From the NCBI GenBank assembly GCA_013151735.1, contig JAADHR010000179.1:12656-76655 (forward strand): a stretch of 64,000 nucleotides of DNA, in the 5' to 3' direction. Both the position numbers and the translations under genes were made by a program. Source of the DNA: Calditrichota bacterium. GTDB taxonomy: Bacteria; Zhuqueibacterota; JdFR-76; BMS3Abin05. This document shows positions 7,524 through 46,698 of this stretch, piece after piece; positions within the stretch are counted from its first letter, which is position 1, and each line of letters begins with the position of its first letter. The notes below the pieces were generated by a model. It searched no databases. It was not told where the DNA came from and saw nothing but the letters and a program-made list of their open reading frames with translations.

Positions 7524-7540
7524 CTGGTTTTTTGGCACGC
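7524..7540 (+). promoter_or_regulatory. Candidate sigma-54 (-24/-12) promoter
   Basis: TGGCACGcgaaTTGTa matches the TGGCACG-N4-TTGC(A/T) consensus with one mismatch. Lies between the NtrC-like regulator gene and the orphan REC gene. Confidence 0.35.
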
Positions 7541-7712
7541 GAATTGTATAATAGATTAGAAAAGAGGGCTGCTGCACAATTTTGTGGTGGGTCAAAAAAA
7601 GCCTCCTTTATTGTGTGGTGAGTGGTGTGTGACGAGGAATAATAAAGGTCGTGTGAGGTGTGGCTAAGCAGCAGCCTTCTTGTTTTTTATGATTGATTGA
7701 AGGTGTGAGAGA

Positions 7713-10666: not shown

Positions 10667-10738
10667 GCGGGAGTAGCTCAGTGGTAGAGCTTCTCGTTGC
10701 CAACGAGAAGGTCGCGGGTTCAAATCCCGTCTCCCGCT
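10667..10738 (+). tRNA. tRNA-Gly (GCC)
   Basis: GCGGGAG acceptor stem pairs with CTCCCGC. Anticodon loop tTGCCAa. GGTTCAAATCC T-loop. Confidence 0.85.
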
Positions 10739-10779
10739 CTAAGTTTCATTCGGTGTTCAGACCAACTGTCGCTTTTTTT

Positions 10780-10852
10780 GGCGGCGTAGCCAAGTGGCTA
10801 AGGCGACGGTCTGCAAAACCGTTATTCACCGGTTCGAATCCGGTCGCCGCCT
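10780..10852 (+). tRNA. tRNA-Cys (GCA)
   Basis: GGCGGCG/CGCCGCC acceptor stem. Anticodon loop cTGCAaa. GGTTCGAATCC T-loop. Confidence 0.85.
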
Positions 10853-10860
10853 CAACATGT

Positions 10861-10946
10861 GCCGGGGTGGCGGAATTGGTAGACGCAAGGGACTTAAAAT
10901 CCCTTGGGCTCTTTAGCCCGTGCCGGTTCGATTCCGGCCCTCGGTA
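10861..10946 (+). tRNA. tRNA-Leu (TAA), long variable arm
   Basis: GCCGGGG acceptor (two G.U pairs). Anticodon loop cTTAAaa. Long variable arm GGGCTCTTTAGCCCG. GGTTCGATTCC T-loop. Confidence 0.8.
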
Positions 10947-10988
10947 CACGTATTTAGCGTCAGGAACAGACGCTTTTTTATTTTAACC

Positions 10989-11062
10989 GGGCGGTTAGCT
11001 CAGTTGGTTAGAGTACTTGCTTGACATGCAAGGGGTCACTGGTTCAAATCCAGTACCGCCCA
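10989..11062 (+). tRNA. tRNA-Val (GAC)
   Basis: GGGCGGT/ACCGCCC acceptor stem. Anticodon loop tTGACat. GGTTCAAATCC T-loop. Confidence 0.85.
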
Positions 11063-40184: not shown

Positions 40185-41561
40185 ATGCCCATGCGAATTT
40201 TATTGGTAGAAGATGAAAAACTCAAGCGCATTTCACTGACGGATGCTCTTGAGAGAAAAAATTTTGAGGTCATTCCCTGCGAAAACCCGATTGATGCGCT
40301 TGCTGTATTGGAAGAAGAAGCAGCCATAGACGTTATTGTCACGGACTTAAAAATGCCAAAAATGAATGGCATCGATTTCATTAAAAAAGTTCGTGAATTT
40401 GATAAAGAAATCCCTATTATTGTTGTAACCGCCTATGCCACGGTAGAAACGGCCGTGGATGCCATGAAATTGGGGGCCTACGATTACATCACCAAACCCT
40501 TTACAACCGATGAACTGATTCTTGTTCTGGATCGTCTCAGGGATTATCAGGAAATTGTGCGGGAGAACATTTATCTAAAAGCGAAAATACGAAGCCGTTA
40601 CCGCTTTGAAAACATTATTGGCCGCTCCAAACCCATGCAGGAAATTTATCGTATTATTCAAACCATAGCCGATTCGGATGCCACGGTCCTCATTCAGGGG
40701 GAGAGCGGTACGGGAAAAGAGCTTATTGCCAATGCGATCCATTTTAACAGCAACCGGCGAAACAAACCCCTTGTTTGTGTCAGTTGTGCCGCTCTAACGG
40801 AGAGCCTTTTTGAGAGTGAGATTTTTGGCCACGAAAGAGGGGCATTCACAGGAGCAGTAAAAGAGAAAAAAGGCCGTTTCGAACTGGCCGACGGAGGAAC
40901 GATCTTTCTGGATGATGTGGACGATATTCCCCTGTCGTCGCAGGTAAAACTGTTGCGAGTTCTTCAGGAAAAAGCGTTTGAGCGGGTGGGGGGTACAAAA
41001 AGCATTTCTGTGGATATTCGTGTGGTGGCCGCGACAAAGGTTAATCTTCTTGAAAAAGTCAAGCAGAATGAATTCAGGGAGGATTTGTACTACCGCCTGA
41101 ATGTTGTTCCCATTTTGTTGCCGCCGCTCCGGGAGAGAAAGGAAGATATTCCCCTGTTGATTGACCACTTCATGAGCAAATATCAAACAAAATCTCCCGT
41201 ACGAAAATTTTCAAATGACGCCATGAAAGTCATTCTTTCGTACGACTGGCCCGGGAATGTGCGGGAGTTGGAAAACATCGTAGAGCGCATTTGTACACTT
41301 ACCACGCATGAAATCGTTGAATTGGAGGATCTCCCGGATTTTCTTCTGGTTCCTTCAAAAACAACATTTAACTGGCGGGGATTTTATGGTCATCACCCTC
41401 AACTGGATTTTGCGGAACTGATTCGATCCTATGAAAAGGAGCTGCTGATTTGGGCACTTAACAAGGCCGGTGGAAATCGCAGCAAAGCGTCTCAATTATT
41501 GCAGTTAAAGCGTACAACTCTTCAGGATAAATTGAAGAAATATGGCCTTCAGGAGAAATAA
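40185..41561 (+). CDS. Sigma-54-dependent response regulator (NtrC family)
   Basis: REC (VIVTDLKMPKMNG), GESGTGKELIA, GAFTGA, ESEIFGH and a C-terminal HTH. Confidence 0.9.
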   Translation: MPMRILLVEDEKLKRISLTDALERKNFEVIPCENPIDALAVLEEEAAIDVIVTDLKMPKMNGIDFIKKVREFDKEIPIIVVTAYATVETAVDAMKLGAYDYITKPFTTDELILVLDRLRDYQEIVRENIYLKAKIRSRYRFENIIGRSKPMQEIYRIIQTIADSDATVLIQGESGTGKELIANAIHFNSNRRNKPLVCVSCAALTESLFESEIFGHERGAFTGAVKEKKGRFELADGGTIFLDDVDDIPLSSQVKLLRVLQEKAFERVGGTKSISVDIRVVAATKVNLLEKVKQNEFREDLYYRLNVVPILLPPLRERKEDIPLLIDHFMSKYQTKSPVRKFSNDAMKVILSYDWPGNVRELENIVERICTLTTHEIVELEDLPDFLLVPSKTTFNWRGFYGHHPQLDFAELIRSYEKELLIWALNKAGGNRSKASQLLQLKRTTLQDKLKKYGLQEK

Positions 41562-42141
41562 CAACACTGCCATCGTACTGGCGGGCGGAAGCAGCACCCG
41601 AATGGGCCGGCCAAAGGCTTTGCTTAATTTTGGCGGAATTTCGCTGATTGAGAGAGTGGTTCATCAATTGCGCCCGGTAACCGAGGATATTCGGATTATT
41701 ACAAATACGCCCGAATTGTACACATTTCTCAATTTACCCATGCACGCTGATTTTATTCCCGATAGCGGGCCCCTGGCCGGTATTTTTACCGGACTGGCGA
41801 TCACACGAAGCGAACCGGTTATTGTGATGGCTTGCGATACCCCCTTTATTACAACAGAGTATTTTTTCTTTTTACTGGACCAGTGGTCAGACAAGATAAG
41901 CTGTCTGATTCCCAAAATAGGCCGTTTTTATGAGCCGTTGGCGGGACTCTATTCCCATCGAGCCATGCCGGTGATCGAAGAATTATTAAAAAGCGGAAAC
42001 CGGAAAATTGAGTCCCTTTTTGACCGGGTTCCCACAAAAACGCTGAGCAAAAGAGATCTGGCTCAATTTGGGGATCTCCGTAAATTTTTCTGGAATATCA
42101 ATGATCCCGAAGGGTATGAAGAGGCGCTCAAACAGTTGTGA
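41542..42141 (+). CDS. mobA: Molybdenum cofactor guanylyltransferase
   Basis: AIVLAGGSSTRMGRPKALL N-terminal motif; length of about 199 aa. Confidence 0.8.
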   Translation: MAFRRNNNTAIVLAGGSSTRMGRPKALLNFGGISLIERVVHQLRPVTEDIRIITNTPELYTFLNLPMHADFIPDSGPLAGIFTGLAITRSEPVIVMACDTPFITTEYFFFLLDQWSDKISCLIPKIGRFYEPLAGLYSHRAMPVIEELLKSGNRKIESLFDRVPTKTLSKRDLAQFGDLRKFFWNINDPEGYEEALKQL

Positions 42142-42329
42142 CGAAATGCCGTCACATTGTCGAAAATGCATCATTTGCGACTGCTCAAAGGGATTCCTGG
42201 GACAAAGCCTTTTGGTTTTCACCTTTTGAAGAATCAAACGGTTACGCTGTTATGAAGGTTATCTGGACATATCGGGGGATTGAATGGCATAGCTTTTGTT
42301 GTAATTGATTTCAATCACATTATTCAATA

Positions 42330-42476
42330 TCTCCGAGTTCCCGAACCTACAGCCCAAAAGCCAGGGTTCTCGAACCGATAGGGTTCAACTGGAAACAGGT
42401 GAGCCTCCCGCGTTTGGAAAGGAGATAGCAGAGGAAAAATAGCCCCAATTTCCGAACGCGAAATTGGGGTTTTTTG
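42330..42476 (+). ncRNA. Candidate molybdenum-cofactor (Moco) riboswitch with intrinsic-terminator expression platform
   Basis: CUCCGAG...UCGAACCGAUAGGGUUCAACUGGAAACAGG...GAGCCUCCC...GGAAAGGAG resembles remembered conserved blocks of the Moco RNA motif (RF01055). Followed by hairpin AGCCCCAATTTCcgaacgcGAAATTGGGGTTTTTTG. Lies next to mobA. Confidence 0.4.
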
Positions 42477-42586
42477 TTTGAAAAATCTGTCGTAAAAATC
42501 CATAGAGAAACGCAGGAGACCGGGGAACGGATCAGAGAATATTGGATCTGCCTCCGGCAAATTAAATTTTTCCATTGGGAGGAAAC

Positions 42587-43219
42587 GTGGCTCATAAACA
42601 ATTTTTTGTTTCGCTTCAGGAAATGGTTCTAATTGCCCTTCTTGGTGCGCTTTGGGCAGCGGTGGAAATTCACGTTGGCTTTCTGCTGCACCTTGTAAAA
42701 TTACCATTTGCCGGAATTTTGTTAACGTTTTTTGGCGTGATCATTCTTTTGGTGGGGCGGACCTTTGTTCCACGGACGGGAACAGCCGTTCTAACCGGCT
42801 TGATTGCTGCTTTATCTACCTTCCTTTTCCTGGGCGCGATTGTCATCTACCCGATGATCGGCATCGTTATGGAGTCCATTTTTGTGGAAATCGGATTGGC
42901 CTTTCCCTTTTCTTCCCGAATCAATTACCAGGTCTCCGGTGTTCTGGGATTGCTGTGGAGTTTTTTCCACCCATTTATTGTTCAGGGGCTTGTTGCGGGT
43001 CTGGGATTTTGGAAGATATTCTCCATTGTCGTTGAAAAAGGGGCCAAACTTTTTCATCTGGCTCCCCAACAGGCGTTTATTGTTTTATTACTCCTGTTCA
43101 GTCTTTTTGCAGCGGCCGGATTACTGGCAGGTATGGTCGGGTGGAGTTTATCCAATCGCCTGCGTCACATGGTTTCGTACCACTGGCTCAGTCAAAAATC
43201 AATAAAAGGCACGGTGTGA
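42587..43219 (+). CDS. Small polytopic membrane protein (about 6 TM; ECF-S-component-like size), function unknown
   Basis: About 210 aa, hydrophobic throughout. Probable GTG start after GGGAGG. First gene downstream of the riboswitch candidate. Confidence 0.45.
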   Translation: MAHKQFFVSLQEMVLIALLGALWAAVEIHVGFLLHLVKLPFAGILLTFFGVIILLVGRTFVPRTGTAVLTGLIAALSTFLFLGAIVIYPMIGIVMESIFVEIGLAFPFSSRINYQVSGVLGLLWSFFHPFIVQGLVAGLGFWKIFSIVVEKGAKLFHLAPQQAFIVLLLLFSLFAAAGLLAGMVGWSLSNRLRHMVSYHWLSQKSIKGTV

Positions 43220-43288
43220 AAAGAAACAACAGAGCGGCTTTATTATGATTCTGGCTTTCCCGGTTTTTTTACAACATTTATCTGCCAT

Positions 43289-43834
43289 TTGTCTGAAATG
43301 ATACGTATTCTGATAACCGGTGAACAGGGTGTCGGAAAATCGACACTTACTCAAAACCTGGTTCAAAAACTGCATCTAAAGCCCTCGGGTTTTAAGACCC
43401 TTCCCATTTATGAAGGCCGCCAGAAATTGGGGTATTATCTTCAAGACCTGGAAACCGGAGAAAAGTATCTCTTTGCACACAGGCGTTTCAAAAGCGATAA
43501 GCGCTTGGGTGATTTTGGAATTCGTGAAGAGGTATTTGAGAAATTCGGAACACAAATTGTGGCGCAGGTGATGTCGAAAGAGGGCTGGATCGTCATTGAT
43601 GAGGTCGGAATTATGGAATCAGATTCCAGGCCTTTTGTGGATGCCCTGAAAAAGCTGTGGAAATCGCCCCGCAATCAGATCTGGGTCATCCAAAAAAGAA
43701 GCCCAATCCTGGGAATGCTCGTCAACCTGAGAGTGCCCTATCATCTATTCGACGTCACGGTTTCCAATCGTGGAGAATTGGCAAATGAAATTCTGAAAAC
43801 CATCCGGCACACTGCAAACAATGAAGAGGGTTGA
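43289..43834 (+). CDS. P-loop NTPase, THEP1/NTPase_1-like
   Basis: Walker A ITGEQGVGKST, Walker B WIVIDEVG; about 180 aa. Confidence 0.55.
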   Translation: MSEMIRILITGEQGVGKSTLTQNLVQKLHLKPSGFKTLPIYEGRQKLGYYLQDLETGEKYLFAHRRFKSDKRLGDFGIREEVFEKFGTQIVAQVMSKEGWIVIDEVGIMESDSRPFVDALKKLWKSPRNQIWVIQKRSPILGMLVNLRVPYHLFDVTVSNRGELANEILKTIRHTANNEEG

Positions 43835-44069: not shown

Positions 44070-45263
44070 ATGAATTCATCTGCCAACCCTGCGATATTCA
44101 AGCATATTATTGAAAATCTTAGTGAAGGGATTATTTTTGTTGACACCGAGAATCGGGTTGTTTTTTGTAACCATGCTGCAGAGGTCATTCGGGGAATCCG
44201 GGAGGAAGATATCATTGGCAACTCGGTTATGGATTGTCATCCGCCCAAAGTTCGCCCCGGCGTGGAAAAAATTATCGAAAGTTTTCGATCGAACAATGCC
44301 ACTGAATATCGTCGAATGGTTCCCTCAGTCAATGGGGATCGCTATTACGACAATGTCTACGCCGCAGTCCGGGATGAAAAGGGACGTTTTGTGGGGATGA
44401 TTTTGGTGAGCCGGGATGTGACCGAGAAGGTCAAGATGCAGAAAAAAATGGAAGACTACATGAAGGTTCTTGAAGATCATGTTCAGGAACGAACAAAGGA
44501 ATTGCAGGAGGCCTACAAGAAATTAAAGAACGCTCAAAATCAAATTATTCAGTCTGAAAAAATGGCTTCTCTCGGGCGCTTAATTGCCGGAGTGGCGCAT
44601 GAAATTAATAATCCTCTGGATGGCATTCAAAACAGCATCCACAATATTATCCAAAATCCTGACGACCAGATGAAAAACATGGTCTACCTCAATCTTATTC
44701 TTGAGAATATCGGACGGATTGAAACCATTGTAAAGCAACTCCTGGGTTATGCCCGTGCGCGAAGCTACCGAATGGAAGCGGTTTCTCTGAGCGAAATTAT
44801 CGAAAAAACGCTTATTTTGTTGGAATATCGACTGTCGCGTTCGGGGATCGAAGTCATTAAGCAGTATCCGGAAAAGGACATTCTCGTTTTGGGCGATGAC
44901 AACCATCTGCAGCAGGTTATGATGAATGTCTTTCTGAATGCCATTGATGCCATGCCCGAGGGCGGGGAACTGCGGATCGAGGTCAAAGCAGAGAGTGAAA
45001 AATGGGCAAAAATAGCGATTGAGGATACGGGCGTTGGAATTCCAAAAGATGATTTACCGCGGATTTTTGATCCCTTTTTTACAACCAAGGAAGTGGGAAA
45101 GGGAACGGGATTGGGGCTGGCCGTCAGTCTCGGAATTATCGAAGAACATGGGGGAAAGATCATCGTGAAAAGTAAAATTGGACGAGGAACCACATTTTCT
45201 ATTTTGATTCCGCCATTAACATCCAAACAAACCAAACCCATTCTCTATGCAGAGATGAAGTAA
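44070..45263 (+). CDS. Cytoplasmic PAS-domain sensor histidine kinase
   Basis: PAS (IIFVDTENRVVFCNHAAEVIRGI), H-box AGVAHEINNPL, G-boxes DTGVGIP...GTGLGLAVSLGII. Confidence 0.85.
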   Translation: MNSSANPAIFKHIIENLSEGIIFVDTENRVVFCNHAAEVIRGIREEDIIGNSVMDCHPPKVRPGVEKIIESFRSNNATEYRRMVPSVNGDRYYDNVYAAVRDEKGRFVGMILVSRDVTEKVKMQKKMEDYMKVLEDHVQERTKELQEAYKKLKNAQNQIIQSEKMASLGRLIAGVAHEINNPLDGIQNSIHNIIQNPDDQMKNMVYLNLILENIGRIETIVKQLLGYARARSYRMEAVSLSEIIEKTLILLEYRLSRSGIEVIKQYPEKDILVLGDDNHLQQVMMNVFLNAIDAMPEGGELRIEVKAESEKWAKIAIEDTGVGIPKDDLPRIFDPFFTTKEVGKGTGLGLAVSLGIIEEHGGKIIVKSKIGRGTTFSILIPPLTSKQTKPILYAEMK

Positions 45264-45486
45264 GCCCTTCGCAGTGTCCCGATTCTGGGAGGAATTTCAT
45301 GTCATCCCCGACAATACCTGACGAAATTCCGTCACTTGTACAGAAATTCGTAAATTATGCCCCTTCATGCCAACTCCTGCATCTTGCCTATTTCTAATAA
45401 AATCAATAAGTTGGATATTTTACGCTTTCTTCTCAGGAATGGCACACTTCTTGAATATCAGGACAGCAAATACCTAAGGAGGAGCA

Positions 45487-46698
45487 TTGGAATCTATCCA
45501 ATCCATTGTTGCCACGATTTTAAAATACACAAAGACACTTCCTTCTGAAAATATCTCATTAATGAAATCTGTAGGTTGTATTGCAGGTGAAAACATCATT
45601 GCATCTGCCGATTTTCCGTCACGCACCCTTTCCCTGATGGATGGTTTTGCATCCCGCCACGAATGGCTGGAAAAAGCATCAAAAAAAACCCCTGTTACTT
45701 TAAAACGATCCCAAAGAAGCGTCTCAAAAAGGGTGTTTGAGAAAGATGTTGCCATTTCTGCCAGACTATTTGAACCCCTGCCCGAGGGTTTTGATGTTGT
45801 ATTTGGAGAAGAAGAGGTATCCGTGTCGCATCAGACAATTACCATTGAGAAACCCTTTCAAAAATGGACGAATGTGTTGCCTGCGGGTTCAAAAATACGC
45901 AAAGGCCGGGTGTTGCTGTCAAAGGGAAGCGAAATCACTTGTTTAGATATCGGTACGGCATCGTTCCTGGAGTTAGAATCCTTGCCCGTTATTCGAAAGC
46001 CGCGGGTGGCTTTGATTTTTGTTTGCCCGTCCATTCAAAATGTCAGGGACAGAGAGACGCTTGTAAAATACCTGAAGGGAATTTCAAATACCATTGCTGC
46101 GCAGGTCATAAAATATCGCGGTCTTGTCAGACGCTATAAAATATTATCTGATTTTTCCGGGGCCGATCGTGTCACAATCTCGCGTGCTTTGAAAAATGAT
46201 TTGATCATTTTTATTGGCGAATGCTCAAAAAGGTACCAGGATATTTTGATTGGCGTATTGGAGAAGAAAAATGTTCAATTTCATTTACACACCCAGAATG
46301 TGTACCCGGGATTATTCTTCTCATTCGGAACATTTGAAGACCGATTGATTTTCTTGCTCCCCAACGATCCCATTGGCGCCATTCTGAATTTTGAGGAATT
46401 TGTCCGGCCCGCGCTTTTTAAAATGAGAGGCAAAAAACAAATCACTCACGATGTGATCAATGCACGATTGGACAAGACCATTAATAAGTCTGAAAACCGG
46501 ATATCACTTGTTCAGGCCTCGGTTCACTTGAGAAATGGTGTTTTTTATGCCGTCCCTGTTGAAGAAAATCCATTTTCCAACCCGGAAAACCGGCGCAAGG
46601 TCAACGGCATTATTGTCCTTCCGCAAAATGTAAGGCAGCTTCCAAGGGGAAGCGTCACGCGTGTGCAAATACTCCGACAACCGGACTGGAATGATTAG
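45487..46698 (+). CDS. MoeA-like (molybdopterin molybdotransferase family) protein, divergent
   Basis: N-terminal ...FPSRTLSLMDGFA resembles MoeA ...VPGFDNSAMDGYA. PVIRKPRVALI, PGLFFSFG and LLPNDPIGA align with MoeA blocks. The GGVSVG motif is not conserved. Confidence 0.45.
   Translation: MESIQSIVATILKYTKTLPSENISLMKSVGCIAGENIIASADFPSRTLSLMDGFASRHEWLEKASKKTPVTLKRSQRSVSKRVFEKDVAISARLFEPLPEGFDVVFGEEEVSVSHQTITIEKPFQKWTNVLPAGSKIRKGRVLLSKGSEITCLDIGTASFLELESLPVIRKPRVALIFVCPSIQNVRDRETLVKYLKGISNTIAAQVIKYRGLVRRYKILSDFSGADRVTISRALKNDLIIFIGECSKRYQDILIGVLEKKNVQFHLHTQNVYPGLFFSFGTFEDRLIFLLPNDPIGAILNFEEFVRPALFKMRGKKQITHDVINARLDKTINKSENRISLVQASVHLRNGVFYAVPVEENPFSNPENRRKVNGIIVLPQNVRQLPRGSVTRVQILRQPDWND

Follow-up and report, generated by a model that had tools for sequence, protein, structure and literature searches.

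A P3-lacking Moco/Tuco-family riboswitch with a terminator platform ahead of a YkoE-like ECF S-component gene in a Calditrichota bacterium

Results

Gene arrangement at the locus

The window, by which we mean the whole stretch of 64,000 nucleotides that was analyzed, comes from a Calditrichota metagenome-assembled genome (MAG). On its plus strand, between mobA and a moeA-like/nap cluster, it contains the aptamer of a Moco/Tuco riboswitch, located 147 nt 5' of a gene for an ECF-transporter S component. An NTPase gene and a histidine kinase gene follow, and the gene of a sigma-54-dependent response regulator precedes mobA (Table 1). The mobA product scores up to 149 bits with the NCBIfam MobA models, which is under their equivalog cutoffs. 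The non-coding gap after mobA had been put at 430 nt in a preliminary description of this DNA; from the mobA stop at 42141 to the GTG start at 42587 it measures 445 nt, so that the earlier figure was close.

Table 1. Features of the riboswitch locus, with positions counted from the first nucleotide of the window.
Feature	Position	Strand	Evidence
Sigma-54-dependent response regulator (receiver, AAA+ sigma-54 interaction domain, HTH_8)	40185..41561	+	
mobA, molybdenum cofactor guanylyltransferase	41542..42141	+	PF12804, 119 bits
Palindrome TGTGACG-N6-CGTCACA, overlapping the mobA stop codon; candidate upstream activator site	42137..42156	+	Exact palindrome
Putative IHF-like block AATCAAACGGTTA, between activator site and promoter	42232..42244	+	Partly conserved in alignment A3
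Predicted sigma-54-type -24/-12 element TGGCATAGCTTTTGT (TTGT versus consensus TTGC)	42285..42299	+	Motif and conservation
Moco/Tuco riboswitch aptamer, P3-lacking subtype	42319..42440	+	RF01055 covariance match
Aptamer P1	42329-42334/42421-42426	+	
Aptamer P2	42337-42347/42365-42375, distal pairs 42352-53/42360-61	+	
Aptamer P4	42381-42391/42396-42406, GAAA tetraloop 42392-42395	+	
Aptamer P5	42407-08/42416-17	+	
Anti-terminator, GCGUUUGGAAA (42410-42420) with UUUCCGAACGC (42449-42459)	42410..42459	+	Folds and orthologs
Intrinsic terminator, stem 42441-42452/42460-42471, loop CGAACGC, U-tract 42470-42475	42441..42479	+	Terminator scan
First regulated gene, YkoE-like ECF-transporter S component (GXO76_12490)	42587..43219	+	Fold and homologs
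Second regulated gene, THEP1-type P-loop NTPase (Pfam NTPase_1)	43289..43834	+	PF03266, 112 bits
PAS histidine kinase	44070..45263	+	PAS, HisKA and HATPase_c domains; syntenic in orthologs
Second activator-site core TGACGAAATTCCGTCA (45319-45334) and -24/-12-like element TGGCACACTTCTTGA (45440-45454)	45317..45454	+	

An aptamer without P3

Rfam cmscan assigns the region 42319-42440 (+) to RF01055 with 81.3 bits (gathering score 36; E 3.8e-18), far above what chance would give, and the match spans model positions 1-135 of 135, that is, it is not truncated. This score, more than twice the threshold, bears out the earlier claim of a Moco RNA motif, and the sequence blocks that had been quoted for it are all present: CUCCGAG at 42331-42337, CGAACCGAUAGGGUUCAACUGGAAACAGG at 42371-42399, GAGCCUCCC at 42401-42409 and GGAAAGGAG at 42416-42424. 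The GAAA that caps P4 is a GNRA tetraloop, and the internal region of P2 reads CCUAC...CAGGG at the place where the family consensus has CCUAag...auGG, the predicted tetraloop receptor in the P2 bulge. The core blocks CUCCGAG (P1/J1-2 junction) and CCUCC and UUUGGAAAGGAG (around P5/P1) are invariant in 13 diverse copies. The model positions of P3 are deleted in the alignment, with P2 and P4 joined by CCG-A-UAGGG only, which places the aptamer in the P3-lacking subclass; all eight copies of the Calditrichaeota type are 122 nt long and lack P3. The likeness to the E. coli moaA leader that had been proposed therefore holds for the family but not for the subtype, as the moaA leader has P3.

The same aptamer is found in eight of eight orthologous leaders (79-91 bits), whose S proteins are 71-86% identical. 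Among these leaders, 94% of the aptamer pair cells are standard-paired, versus 24-53% when the partners are slid, compensatory changes occur in 8 pairs, and the covariation score is matched by 0 of 500 shuffles. By helix, the changes affect 2 pairs in P2 and 4 pairs in P4; P1 and P5 are invariant and hence uninformative. The check for covariation in related genomes that had been suggested thus finds the structure kept with compensatory changes, and neither of the two outcomes that the preliminary description named as speaking against it, a sub-threshold score and the lack of a conserved structure in orthologous regions, was obtained. By sequence and conserved structure, the RNA is a genuine member of the Moco/Tuco riboswitch family; the class is already known, and the aptamer is a further member of RF01055.

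A terminator and a competing pairing

Directly 3' of the aptamer, the scan for terminators gave a stem of 12 pairs (42441-42471) with a T-run behind it; the hairpin energy is -16.3 kcal/mol. This is the strong terminator announced earlier, CCCCAAUUUC-CGAACGC-GAAAUUGGGG-U6, which we locate at 42443-42475. Its cells are paired to 97.9% in the orthologs, with 2 compensatory pairs. In one ortholog (L005) the terminator directly abuts the ribosome binding site (RBS) of the S-component gene, which lies within 10 nt, and this suggests that the terminator governs the S-component gene.

The terminator competes with an 11-bp pairing of -12.7 kcal/mol, whose 5' partner, GCGUUUGGAAA, comprises the P5 loop, the P5 3' strand and J5/1 and belongs to the invariant aptamer core, and whose 3' partner, UUUCCGAACGC, consists of the end of the terminator 5' arm and the terminator loop. 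This anti-terminator is part of the minimum-free-energy fold in eight of eight leaders truncated before the terminator 3' arm, and every ortholog keeps 10-11 of the 11 pairs, with changes from U-A to U-G on the terminator side only. The complementarity to the aptamer core explains the otherwise unusual conservation of the terminator loop. At the decision point the anti-terminator state (-41.1 kcal/mol) is more stable than the aptamer state (-36.1 kcal/mol) by 5 kcal/mol, whereas in the full leader aptamer and terminator together reach -51.4 kcal/mol; the terminator fold is thus thermodynamically favored even without ligand, and read-through would depend on co-transcriptional kinetics. Distant copies follow the same logic, in that their terminator 5' arms hold CUUUCC or CUCCUU, complementary to GGAAAGGAG. 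The conservation of the pairing in eight orthologous leaders indicates what, judged from sequence, would be a kinetic OFF switch. Another candidate for the anti-terminator, the purine-rich linker 42427-42440 with UUUCC, forms 5 weak pairs that are not conserved, and it was replaced by the 11-bp pairing of core and loop.

Upstream control elements

Ahead of the aptamer we predict a sigma-54 promoter. Its element, TGGCAT-N5-TTGT, has the correct spacing and carries T instead of C at -12 (canonical TGGCAC-N5-TTGCW); it is one of two exact matches to TGGCAY-N5-TTGY in the 64 kb, and it predicts a transcription start near 42311. The -24/-12 element is kept in seven of eight orthologous leaders, with diverging flanks. 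At one mismatch the motif is not enriched in the window (18 found versus 17 expected), so that the promoter call derives from cross-species conservation alone. A scan for sigma-70 promoters 5' of the aptamer gave nothing convincing, with counts equal to the shuffled expectation.

The palindrome at the end of mobA is an invariant block in an alignment of six orthologs (A3), and its core, TGACG-N6-CGTCA, is found again in the orthologs at a constant 143-146 nt upstream of the -24/-12 element. The block between palindrome and promoter is called IHF-like by comparison with the IHF consensus, WATCAANNNNTTR. The adjacent NtrC-type response regulator (Sigma54_activat 238.6 bits, Response_reg 100.5 bits), whose gene is syntenic in all orthologs, likely activates the riboswitch promoter, and the PAS histidine kinase is likely its sensor partner. 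A second pair of activator-site core and -24/-12-like element precedes the moeA-like/porin/napMADGH genes; L001, L003 and L005 keep this pair, with 121-123 nt between its two parts.

The genes behind the switch and their relatives

Under the riboswitch stand the two plus-strand genes that follow it, which encode the S component and the NTPase_1 protein. mobA is not among them, since it lies upstream of the aptamer and is separated from it by the promoter, and the nap genes are located about 6.7 kb downstream of the riboswitch behind a predicted promoter of their own, which makes their link to the riboswitch contextual and not direct. The placement beside a Moco gene and 5' of nap, pointed out in the preliminary description, is therefore correct as context but does not extend to direct control of mobA or nap.

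The first gene (GTG start, RBS GGGAGGA at 42577-42583) encodes a six-helix membrane protein of 210 aa that is 100% identical to a protein from a Calditrichaeota MAG. A search of the PDB sequences with the family profile found no S component, and fold comparison was needed. The AlphaFold model (pLDDT 91.6, pTM 0.87) has six long helices, and its top match in Foldseek is the ECF S component 5EDL (probability 1.0, TM 0.58-0.62), with RibU, the 4HUQ S subunit and BioY as further matches. PF09819 reaches 17.2 bits where its cutoff is 25.2, and the NCBIfam models give no match; PF09819 is present in some homologs. In the S-component family W23, E27 and E96 are invariant, and E101, W124 and H128 nearly so. 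The protein is a divergent subfamily of the YkoE-like family. No genes for EcfA or EcfT were found within the 64-kb window, and with the sub-threshold Pfam score this means that a function in transport would follow from the fold and the homologs. The product of the second gene matches PDB 1YE8 (Aquifex AQ_1292) with an E-value of 1.3e-15. In the close relatives L001, L005 and L007, the same leader stands ahead of a BtuB-like TonB-dependent receptor and the S component, with the receptor translationally coupled to the S-component gene, and Calditrichaeota relatives also have a Sec-exported haem-c/SUOX-fold protein. The window has neither the TonB receptor nor the SUOX-fold gene, which were lost or never present.

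In most of 80 loci the S-component homolog has a fused EcfAA' and CbiQ (EcfT) as its neighbors, and at 37-45% identity such flanks are found in dozens of loci. This homologous ECF module begins with an NTPase_1 gene in 35 of 46 loci, and about 13 loci have moeA or mobA next to it; L020 and L029 are examples of the full module. In metagenomes, an RF01055 riboswitch accompanies the module (NTPase_1-EcfAA'-S-EcfT) in 24 of 46 evaluable loci, in both P3-containing and P3-lacking forms; the leader at L020 3637-3900 is an example of the former. A strict regular expression for the Moco core had matched 7 of 80 metagenome loci, with three of the matches starting inside P3 and not P1, and a covariance-model search found 28 metagenome loci; L058, L049, L010 and L021, weaker matches with no Rfam support at the gathering score, were left out. 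A scan of the genome collection returned four loci, all already known. In locus L012 the called gene start lies inside the aptamer, as if the RBS were masked there; however, the sequence has a terminator further on and the Pfam match does not begin until residue 26, so that the gene start was probably mis-called.

Discussion

We consider it very probable that 42319-42479 is a functional P3-lacking RF01055 riboswitch that acts as an OFF switch through transcription termination and leads a two-gene operon of S component (42587-43219) and NTPase (43289-43834). Transcription would start near 42311 from the sigma-54 promoter, activated by the response regulator bound at the palindrome 42137-42156. 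As long as the cofactor (Moco or Tuco) is scarce, the newly made aptamer core GCGUUUGGAAA would pair with UUUCCGAACGC into the 11-bp anti-terminator, which would occupy the end of the terminator 5' arm and the loop and thereby let RNA polymerase read through into the operon. With abundant cofactor, the P1/P5 core would be locked and the anti-terminator would not form, so that the hairpin 42441-42471 with its U6 could fold and the transcript would end. A genetic OFF switch is also described for the Moco RNA of E. coli, and some members of the family use terminator platforms (Regulski et al. 2008, PMC2408646). Ligand binding in vitro has never been shown for the Moco aptamer (reviewed in PMC11672702), nor has direct binding by the E. 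coli Moco RNA, its ligand being unstable (PMC2408646; PMC11672702).

Most characterized Moco RNAs mask the RBS in P1 (PMC2408646), and the P1 3' strand of the aptamer described here contains GGAGAU. One could thus assume a real aptamer that regulates translation, or that acts as an ON switch, after the type of E. coli moaA, where the P1 3' strand is the RBS. However, the AGGAG of P1 is located 163 nt 5' of the start codon, which has a strong RBS of its own, and no ORF start lies within 20 nt of P1. Together with the conserved pair of anti-terminator and terminator this agrees with the earlier view that AGGAG is not used as an RBS and that the platform is transcriptional. Moreover, the terminator lies wholly outside the aptamer and its bypass needs an anti-terminator derived from the aptamer, an arrangement that implies OFF upon ligand binding; we judge control at the level of translation, or an ON switch, to be highly improbable. 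Another explanation would make the hairpin 42441-42471 the terminator of the transcript from the sigma-54 regulator and mobA, and the aptamer an uncoupled relic. Read on the minus strand, the hairpin likewise has the form of a terminator, and it lies 300 nt downstream of mobA. A relic, however, would hardly score more than twice the gathering threshold and show compensatory changes across orthologs at the above divergence of their S proteins, nor would the terminator loop be conserved as the complement of the aptamer core. The conserved promoter between mobA and the aptamer and the RBS within 10 nt of the terminator in L005 also argue against this explanation, which is very unlikely to be correct.

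The controlled membrane protein might not be a transporter but, for example, a sensor or an assembly factor, in which case the riboswitch would tune something other than uptake. In favor of this, the window contains no EcfA or EcfT, PF09819 is below threshold, and the search by PDB sequence found no S component. However, the confident structural model best matches the YkoE S component, followed by RibU, 4HUQ_S and BioY, the homologs are flanked by EcfAA' and CbiQ/EcfT, and the S gene of close relatives has a TonB-dependent receptor translationally coupled to it. It is well known from group II ECF systems that an S component may stand alone and draw on a shared EcfAA'T module. We therefore regard a function other than transport as improbable. 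Most likely, the operon supplies a micronutrient related to molybdenum or tungsten, either the molybdate/tungstate oxyanions or a pterin-type cofactor or precursor, and the circuit would then represent end-product feedback on uptake.

In the literature outside Rodionov et al. 2009 and RegPrecise, we found no description of an ECF transporter with a Moco riboswitch, of YkoE with molybdenum, or of an ECF transporter with molybdate or tungstate. The transporter family of the module has apparently not yet been linked to either metal, and the regulon, to the extent that gene neighborhoods reveal it, points to a Mo/W-related ECF importer that is apparently undescribed. The JGI label "thiamin/HMP permease" for members of the family is probably a mis-annotation by homology. 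A bolder reading is that the module, joined in Calditrichaeota relatives by the TonB-dependent receptor and the haem-c/SUOX-fold protein, is an unrecognized, widespread ECF importer that takes up a ready-made pterin, either the cofactor or a precursor of it (molybdopterin, Moco/Tuco or cPMP), and not an oxyanion. We think this unlikely, and its milder version would be a new class of molybdate/tungstate importer.

The absence of P3 raises the question whether the RNA is a specific sensor of the tungsten cofactor (Tuco), with an operon that serves the acquisition of tungsten and not of molybdenum. Regulski et al. 2008 (PMC2408646) found Tuco-related genes in 17 of the 19 organisms whose RNAs lack P3, all five P3-less copies in E. 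limosum are treated as tungsten-dependent, and P3-less copies of the terminator type are derepressed there under tungsten limitation (PMC11725836). The GXO locus-tag series may also point to a hydrothermal origin of the MAG, where tungsten is relatively available. On the other hand, the neighborhood is a nitrate-reduction cluster of the molybdenum type with mobA, the moeA-like gene and napA, no AOR/WOR, tupABC or tungsten-specific gene was seen within the 64 kb of genome, and in other lineages the homologous ECF module is controlled by P3-containing copies. The occurrence of the same transporter family behind both subtypes suggests a transporter without metal specificity, or else a P3 that does not strictly separate molybdenum from tungsten. 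The combination of a P3-lacking form with a molybdenum-type neighborhood leaves the identity of the ligand uncertain, and we see tungsten specificity as possible, though somewhat doubtful. As homologous operons occur behind P3-containing and P3-lacking aptamers alike, nature provides matched cases in which to test whether P3 distinguishes Moco from Tuco sensing, a proposal of 2008 of which we know no settlement.

The locus offers a well-resolved Moco-class riboswitch with terminator, anti-terminator, predicted sigma-54 promoter and candidate activator site in a phylum with few characterized regulators. Its larger value may lie in the controlled genes, as riboswitches reliably point to function, and the YkoE-like ECF module with its THEP1-type NTPase is now annotated as thiamine/HMP permease or remains unnamed. 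If the module imports molybdate/tungstate or a pterin cofactor, it would close a gap in the way many uncultured anaerobes acquire Mo/W and would provide a cellular role for the THEP1/NTPase_1 family, for which, to our knowledge, none is known. If the pterin-cofactor substrate were true, this would be the first bacterial cofactor-salvage route for Moco.

The RNA shares with the Moco RNA motif RF01055 (Weinberg 2007; Regulski et al. 2008) the helices P1, P2, P4 and P5, the GAAA on P4, the invariant CUCCGAG, CCUCC and GGAAAGGAG, and a position in the 5' leader of Mo/W-related genes; other members with terminator platforms are the tandem copies of S. wolfei and the E. limosum copies at fetABC1/focA. 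In addition to lacking the P3 stem, it differs from the E. coli moaA prototype in its predicted sigma-54 promoter with its own enhancer-binding regulator in place of ModE/FNR. The S component and NTPase_1 are absent from the portions of the published RF01055 gene lists that were accessible (moa, moe, mob, mod, tup, Mo/W enzymes, Fe ABC transporters and focA). A Moco riboswitch in Calditrichaeota is known from another locus, that of the MFS molybdate transporter/moa in C. abyssi (PMC5317091).

The arrangement also resembles that of the YkoE/ThiW-type S components under TPP riboswitches (B. subtilis ykoEDC; 5EDL), with which it shares the six-helix fold, a cofactor riboswitch that would repress a cofactor-related ECF importer, and homologs with dedicated EcfAA' and EcfT. 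Unlike YkoE, to whose structure (5EDL) the protein is about 18% identical over the structural alignment, it stands behind a riboswitch of the Moco class and not of the TPP class, and the module has a fused EcfAA', the extra NTPase_1, and moeA/mobA in place of thiamine genes as neighbors. The relatives L001, L005 and L007 have an architecture for cofactor uptake across two membranes like that of the B12 riboswitch with btuB or the TPP riboswitch with a TonB thiamine receptor, although the ligand class here is a Mo/W cofactor and the window is without the receptor. TonB channels near "molybdopterin" riboswitches have been mentioned in passing for Pelobacter carbinolicus (PMC3543383).

Identity and subtype of the aptamer

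The RNA at 42319-42440 is a further member of the known RF01055 family, the Moco/Tuco riboswitch aptamers, with a complete and conserved switch anatomy. When all 4227 Rfam families were scanned against the whole window, RF01055 matched here on the forward strand with 81.3 bits (E 3.8e-18; gathering score 36), spanning model positions 1-135 without truncation, and was the only match other than tRNAs. This bears out the Moco riboswitch proposed in the preliminary description, and the sequence blocks quoted there were all found in place. The tRNA matches (57-75 bits) form a cluster of four genes at 10667-11062 (+).

Helices P1, P2, P4 and P5 were located by projecting the Rfam consensus on the sequence (see table); the model's P3 hairpin is absent, and P2 and P4 are joined only by CCG-A-UAGGG. 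The likeness to the E. coli moaA leader that had been noted therefore holds for the family but not for the subtype, as that leader contains P3. Regulski et al. 2008 (PMC2408646) distinguished family members with P3 from those without it and found the latter linked almost exclusively to metabolism of the tungsten cofactor (Tuco); for Eubacterium limosum, a 2024 study (PMC11725836) likewise took the absence of P3 as a signature of W-dependent copies.

The 210-aa protein encoded after the riboswitch shares 100% identity with GXO76_12490 from a Calditrichaeota MAG, and contigs encoding its homologs were used to compare leaders. All eight close orthologous loci carry RF01055 (122 nt, P3-less, 79-91 bits) in the corresponding position, after mobA and before the gene of the membrane protein. 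In an alignment of the eight leaders, with pairs counted over the Rfam-derived helices and the terminator, 94% of pair cells hold standard pairs; sliding the 3' partners by 1-3 columns lowers this to 24-53%. Changes on both sides occur in eight pairs (two in P2, four in P4, two in the terminator), and none of 500 shuffles reached the observed covariation score; P1 and P5 are invariant, hence uninformative for covariation. The riboswitch proposal, which implied structure conserved among relatives, holds in this respect.

Features of the riboswitch locus and of related loci (window positions unless a locus is named)
Feature	Position	Strand	Remarks
Response regulator, sigma-54 type	40185-41561		upstream of mobA
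mobA	41542-42141		confirmed by Pfam and NCBIfam; 445-nt gap to next gene
Palindrome TGTGACG-N6-CGTCACA	42137-42156		perfect; overlaps mobA stop codon; conserved upstream
IHF-like block AATCAA-N4-TTA	42232-42244		conserved upstream
Sigma-54-like -24/-12 element TGGCATAGCTTTTGT	42285-42299		spacing fits; TTGT instead of TTGC; conserved upstream
Aptamer P1	42329-42334 / 42421-42426	+	AUCUCC/GGAGAU
Aptamer P2	42337-42347 / 42365-42375	+	plus distal extension of two pairs
Aptamer P4	42381-42391 / 42396-42406	+	GAAA tetraloop cap
Aptamer P5	42407-08 / 42416-17	+	Rfam consensus mapping
Anti-terminator, aptamer side	42410-42420	+	5'-GCGUUUGGAAA-3'; P5 loop, P5 3' strand, J5/1 adenosines
Intrinsic terminator	42441-42471, then T-run	+	terminator scan; 12-pair hairpin
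Anti-terminator, terminator side	42449-42459	+	5'-UUUCCGAACGC-3'; last 5'-arm bases and whole terminator loop
Membrane protein, 210 aa	42587-43219		first regulated gene; six-helix model
THEP1-type P-loop NTPase	43289-43834		PF03266 112 bits; PDB 1YE8 E 1.3e-15
PAS kinase	44070-45263		after riboswitch operon
Second palindrome core TGACGAAATTCCGTCA and -24/-12-like element TGGCACACTTCTTGA	45317-45454		ahead of moeA-like/porin/napMADGH genes
~357-aa protein	L001 8764-9837; L003 6725-7795; L005 5162-6238		riboswitch operon of relatives
ECF module loci	L012 3259-7291; L020 3637-7340; L029-L100		L029-L100: about 46 evaluable metagenome loci

A predicted terminator switch built on the aptamer core

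The terminator described behind the aptamer was recovered by a terminator scan. When each of the eight leaders was cut just before the 3' arm of the terminator and folded, one common alternative helix appeared in all of them, an 11-bp anti-terminator, absent from the preliminary description, with a predicted energy of -12.7 kcal/mol against -16.3 for the terminator hairpin. Its aptamer side is invariant in the orthologous leaders, and variation is confined to the terminator side, where changes from U-A to U-G keep the pairing and one mismatch occurs in each of the orthologs L005 and L016. The terminator loop is conserved because it pairs with the aptamer core in the anti-terminator. At the decision point, the anti-terminator state (-41.1) is computed to be 5 kcal/mol more stable than the aptamer state with P1 and P5 (-36.1), whereas in the full leader the aptamer with terminator is the most stable arrangement (-51.4; minimum free energy -53.4). 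As modeled, such energies are typical of an OFF switch under kinetic control. If ligand is absent, the anti-terminator would be first to form and polymerase would pass the U-tract; with ligand, the aptamer core would be locked and the terminator would form. The AGGAG of P1 lies 163 nt from the GTG start at 42587, which has its own RBS (GGGAGGA, 42577-42583), and the platform is therefore transcriptional, as had been proposed. Distant family members share the device; the 5' arms of their terminators include CUUUCC or CUCCUU.

The regulated genes

The preliminary description had drawn support from the location by mobA and nap. The aptamer does adjoin mobA, but the genes under its control are those of an S-component-like protein and an NTPase; mobA is not regulated, nor, directly, is nap. 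The membrane protein matches no family above threshold (PF09819 'ABC_cobalt', 17.2 bits, cutoff 25.2). A profile search found 98 related clusters, and for many of them the JGI label is thiamin/HMP transport permease. The AlphaFold model of the protein (62 homologs) is confident (pLDDT 91.6, pTM 0.87) and has six long helices. Foldseek ranks 5EDL first among PDB structures (probability 1.00, TM 0.58-0.62); this is YkoE, an ECF-transporter S component, and RibU, the 4HUQ S subunit and BioY come next. The 64-kb window contains no EcfA or EcfT homolog.

In close relatives the operon is longer, with genes for the S component, a BtuB-like TonB-dependent receptor whose reading frame overlaps that of the S component, a ~357-aa protein and NTPase_1. 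In the ~357-aa protein, a Sec-type signal peptide without twin arginine is combined with a haem-c motif (CxxCH) and an Oxidored_molyb domain of sulfite-oxidase type that is split (PF00174, 24-28 bits, cutoff 24). Tat is the normal export route of periplasmic Moco enzymes, and a Moco-fold protein exported by Sec is an odd occupant of this operon. The window operon has neither the receptor nor the SUOX-fold gene (43219-43289, against 6633-9837 in the relative L001), and L003 lacks only the receptor between S component and NTPase; the operon content is therefore fluid in this lineage.

A putative Mo/W-related ECF importer

Distant homologs of the S component (37-45% identity) occur in a very constant module of NTPase_1, fused EcfAA', S component and CbiQ/EcfT. 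RF01055 precedes it in L012/L013 and L020, where the aptamers contain P3. A metagenome scan added 80 further loci; all loci were searched with our own covariance model, built from 13 diverse riboswitch copies, and module neighbours were annotated by tblastn. In 24 of the 46 evaluable loci (at least 300 nt before the first module gene) an RF01055-class riboswitch lies directly upstream of the module, with weak matches in three more, and Rfam's own model confirmed 13 of 17 submitted loci at the gathering score. NTPase_1 is the first module gene in 35 of the 46, and moeA or mobA adjoins the module in about 13 loci. Riboswitch regulation and this neighbourhood are two independent lines that tie the S-component family to Mo/W cofactor metabolism, and we consider the module to be probably an undescribed Mo/W-related ECF importer. 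The main interest of the riboswitch lies in an intact, conserved switch and in the transporter family that it reveals.

JGI annotates the module S component as a thiamin/HMP permease, and the searchable literature yielded no description of such a transporter, with an earlier mention in Rodionov et al. 2009 or RegPrecise possible. The gene listing of Regulski et al. 2008 (PMC2408646) does not include the module; in Caldithrix abyssi, the genome paper places a Moco riboswitch solely at another locus, an MFS molybdate transporter/moa cluster (PMC5317091), and the Pelobacter genome paper remarks in passing on TonB channels near molybdopterin riboswitches (PMC3543383).

An NTPase_1-EcfAA'-S module without a riboswitch occurs in L018 (1344-6600, 2.1-Mb contig), preceded by a Fur-family regulator gene and with a TonB-dependent receptor nearby in divergent orientation. 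This arrangement hints that some lineages may place the same transporter under metal regulation by a protein.

Substrate and metal

The S component may import an oxyanion, molybdate or tungstate. Transporters of the mod and tup types are classic targets of Moco riboswitches, and the gene of the metal-insertion enzyme, moeA, often adjoins the module; both argue for such a substrate. Salvage of a pterin-type substrate (molybdopterin, Moco/Tuco or a precursor) appears rather improbable to us, yet several features point that way. To our knowledge, S components of the YkoE-like fold bind organic vitamins, and the residues that are invariant (W23, E27, E96) or nearly invariant (E101, W124, H128) in the family are of a kind that suits stacking and hydrogen bonding of an aminopyrimidine, not anion binding. 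In relatives, moreover, the gene is accompanied by the TonB-dependent receptor and the Sec-exported SUOX-fold protein, which could not get cytoplasmic Moco by the Tat route.

The genes around the riboswitch form a periplasmic nitrate/nitrite reduction cluster of the molybdenum type (napM-like cytochrome c, napA, napD, napG, napH-like, cytochrome b and multihaem proteins), which mirrors the Caldithrix abyssi Nap locus (PMC5317091), and the 64-kb window holds no tungsten-specific gene. A P3-less aptamer beside this cluster is therefore an exception to the Tuco rule, or tungsten is used elsewhere, or P3 does not determine the metal. The S-component family is found behind both aptamer subtypes, and such homologous operons are a good place to test the P3 rule. 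The moeA-like gene at 45487-46698 has a good MoeA_N match but only 18.5 bits for MoCF_biosynth (against 26.6) and reaches none of the NCBIfam equivalog cutoffs for MoeA/Glp; it is a divergent paralogue of MoeA whose function is uncertain.

In MAGs labelled Cytophagia, mobA-S component(-TonB receptor) operons are preceded by a divergent Moco-like motif without P3 (L010 5048-5184, L017 3976-4112, L021 4520-4656). Its order is CUCCGAACCC, a GCAA/GUAA tetraloop, CCAGCC/CCUGCC, an extended P5 of ~29 nt and GCAAAGGAGA. It scores 26-27 bits by our model, goes unreported by Rfam even at E 0.1, and may be a variant class missed by the curated model.

Predicted promoters and the two-component system

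An alignment of the DNA upstream of the aptamer from six orthologs contains three conserved islands within otherwise diverged sequence: the palindrome, the IHF-like block and the -24/-12 element. From this conservation, transcription would be predicted to start near 42311, ~18 nt before P1. In the window and orthologs, each locus has two pairs of palindrome core and -24/-12 element, with a fixed distance between the two members: 143-146 nt in the pair ahead of the riboswitch and 121-123 nt in the pair ahead of the moeA-like gene (45319 and 45440 in the window). The response regulator encoded just upstream of mobA has receiver, sigma-54-interaction (Sigma54_activat, 238.6 bits) and HTH_8 domains, and a PAS histidine kinase gene follows the riboswitch operon. 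We infer that this adjacent two-component system serves the two predicted sigma-54 promoters, and the second copy suggests that the riboswitch operon and the nitrate-reductase cluster are both under its control. The riboswitch would add cofactor feedback to the first promoter. The evidence supports the preliminary description with three corrections, which concern the subtype, the genes under control and the promoter. Judged within the window by itself, the -24/-12 pattern does not stand out statistically (two exact matches; 18 with one mismatch against 17 expected). The only exact match to TGGCAY-N5-TTGY besides that at 42285-42299 is TGGCACGCGAATTGT at 7533-7547 (+).
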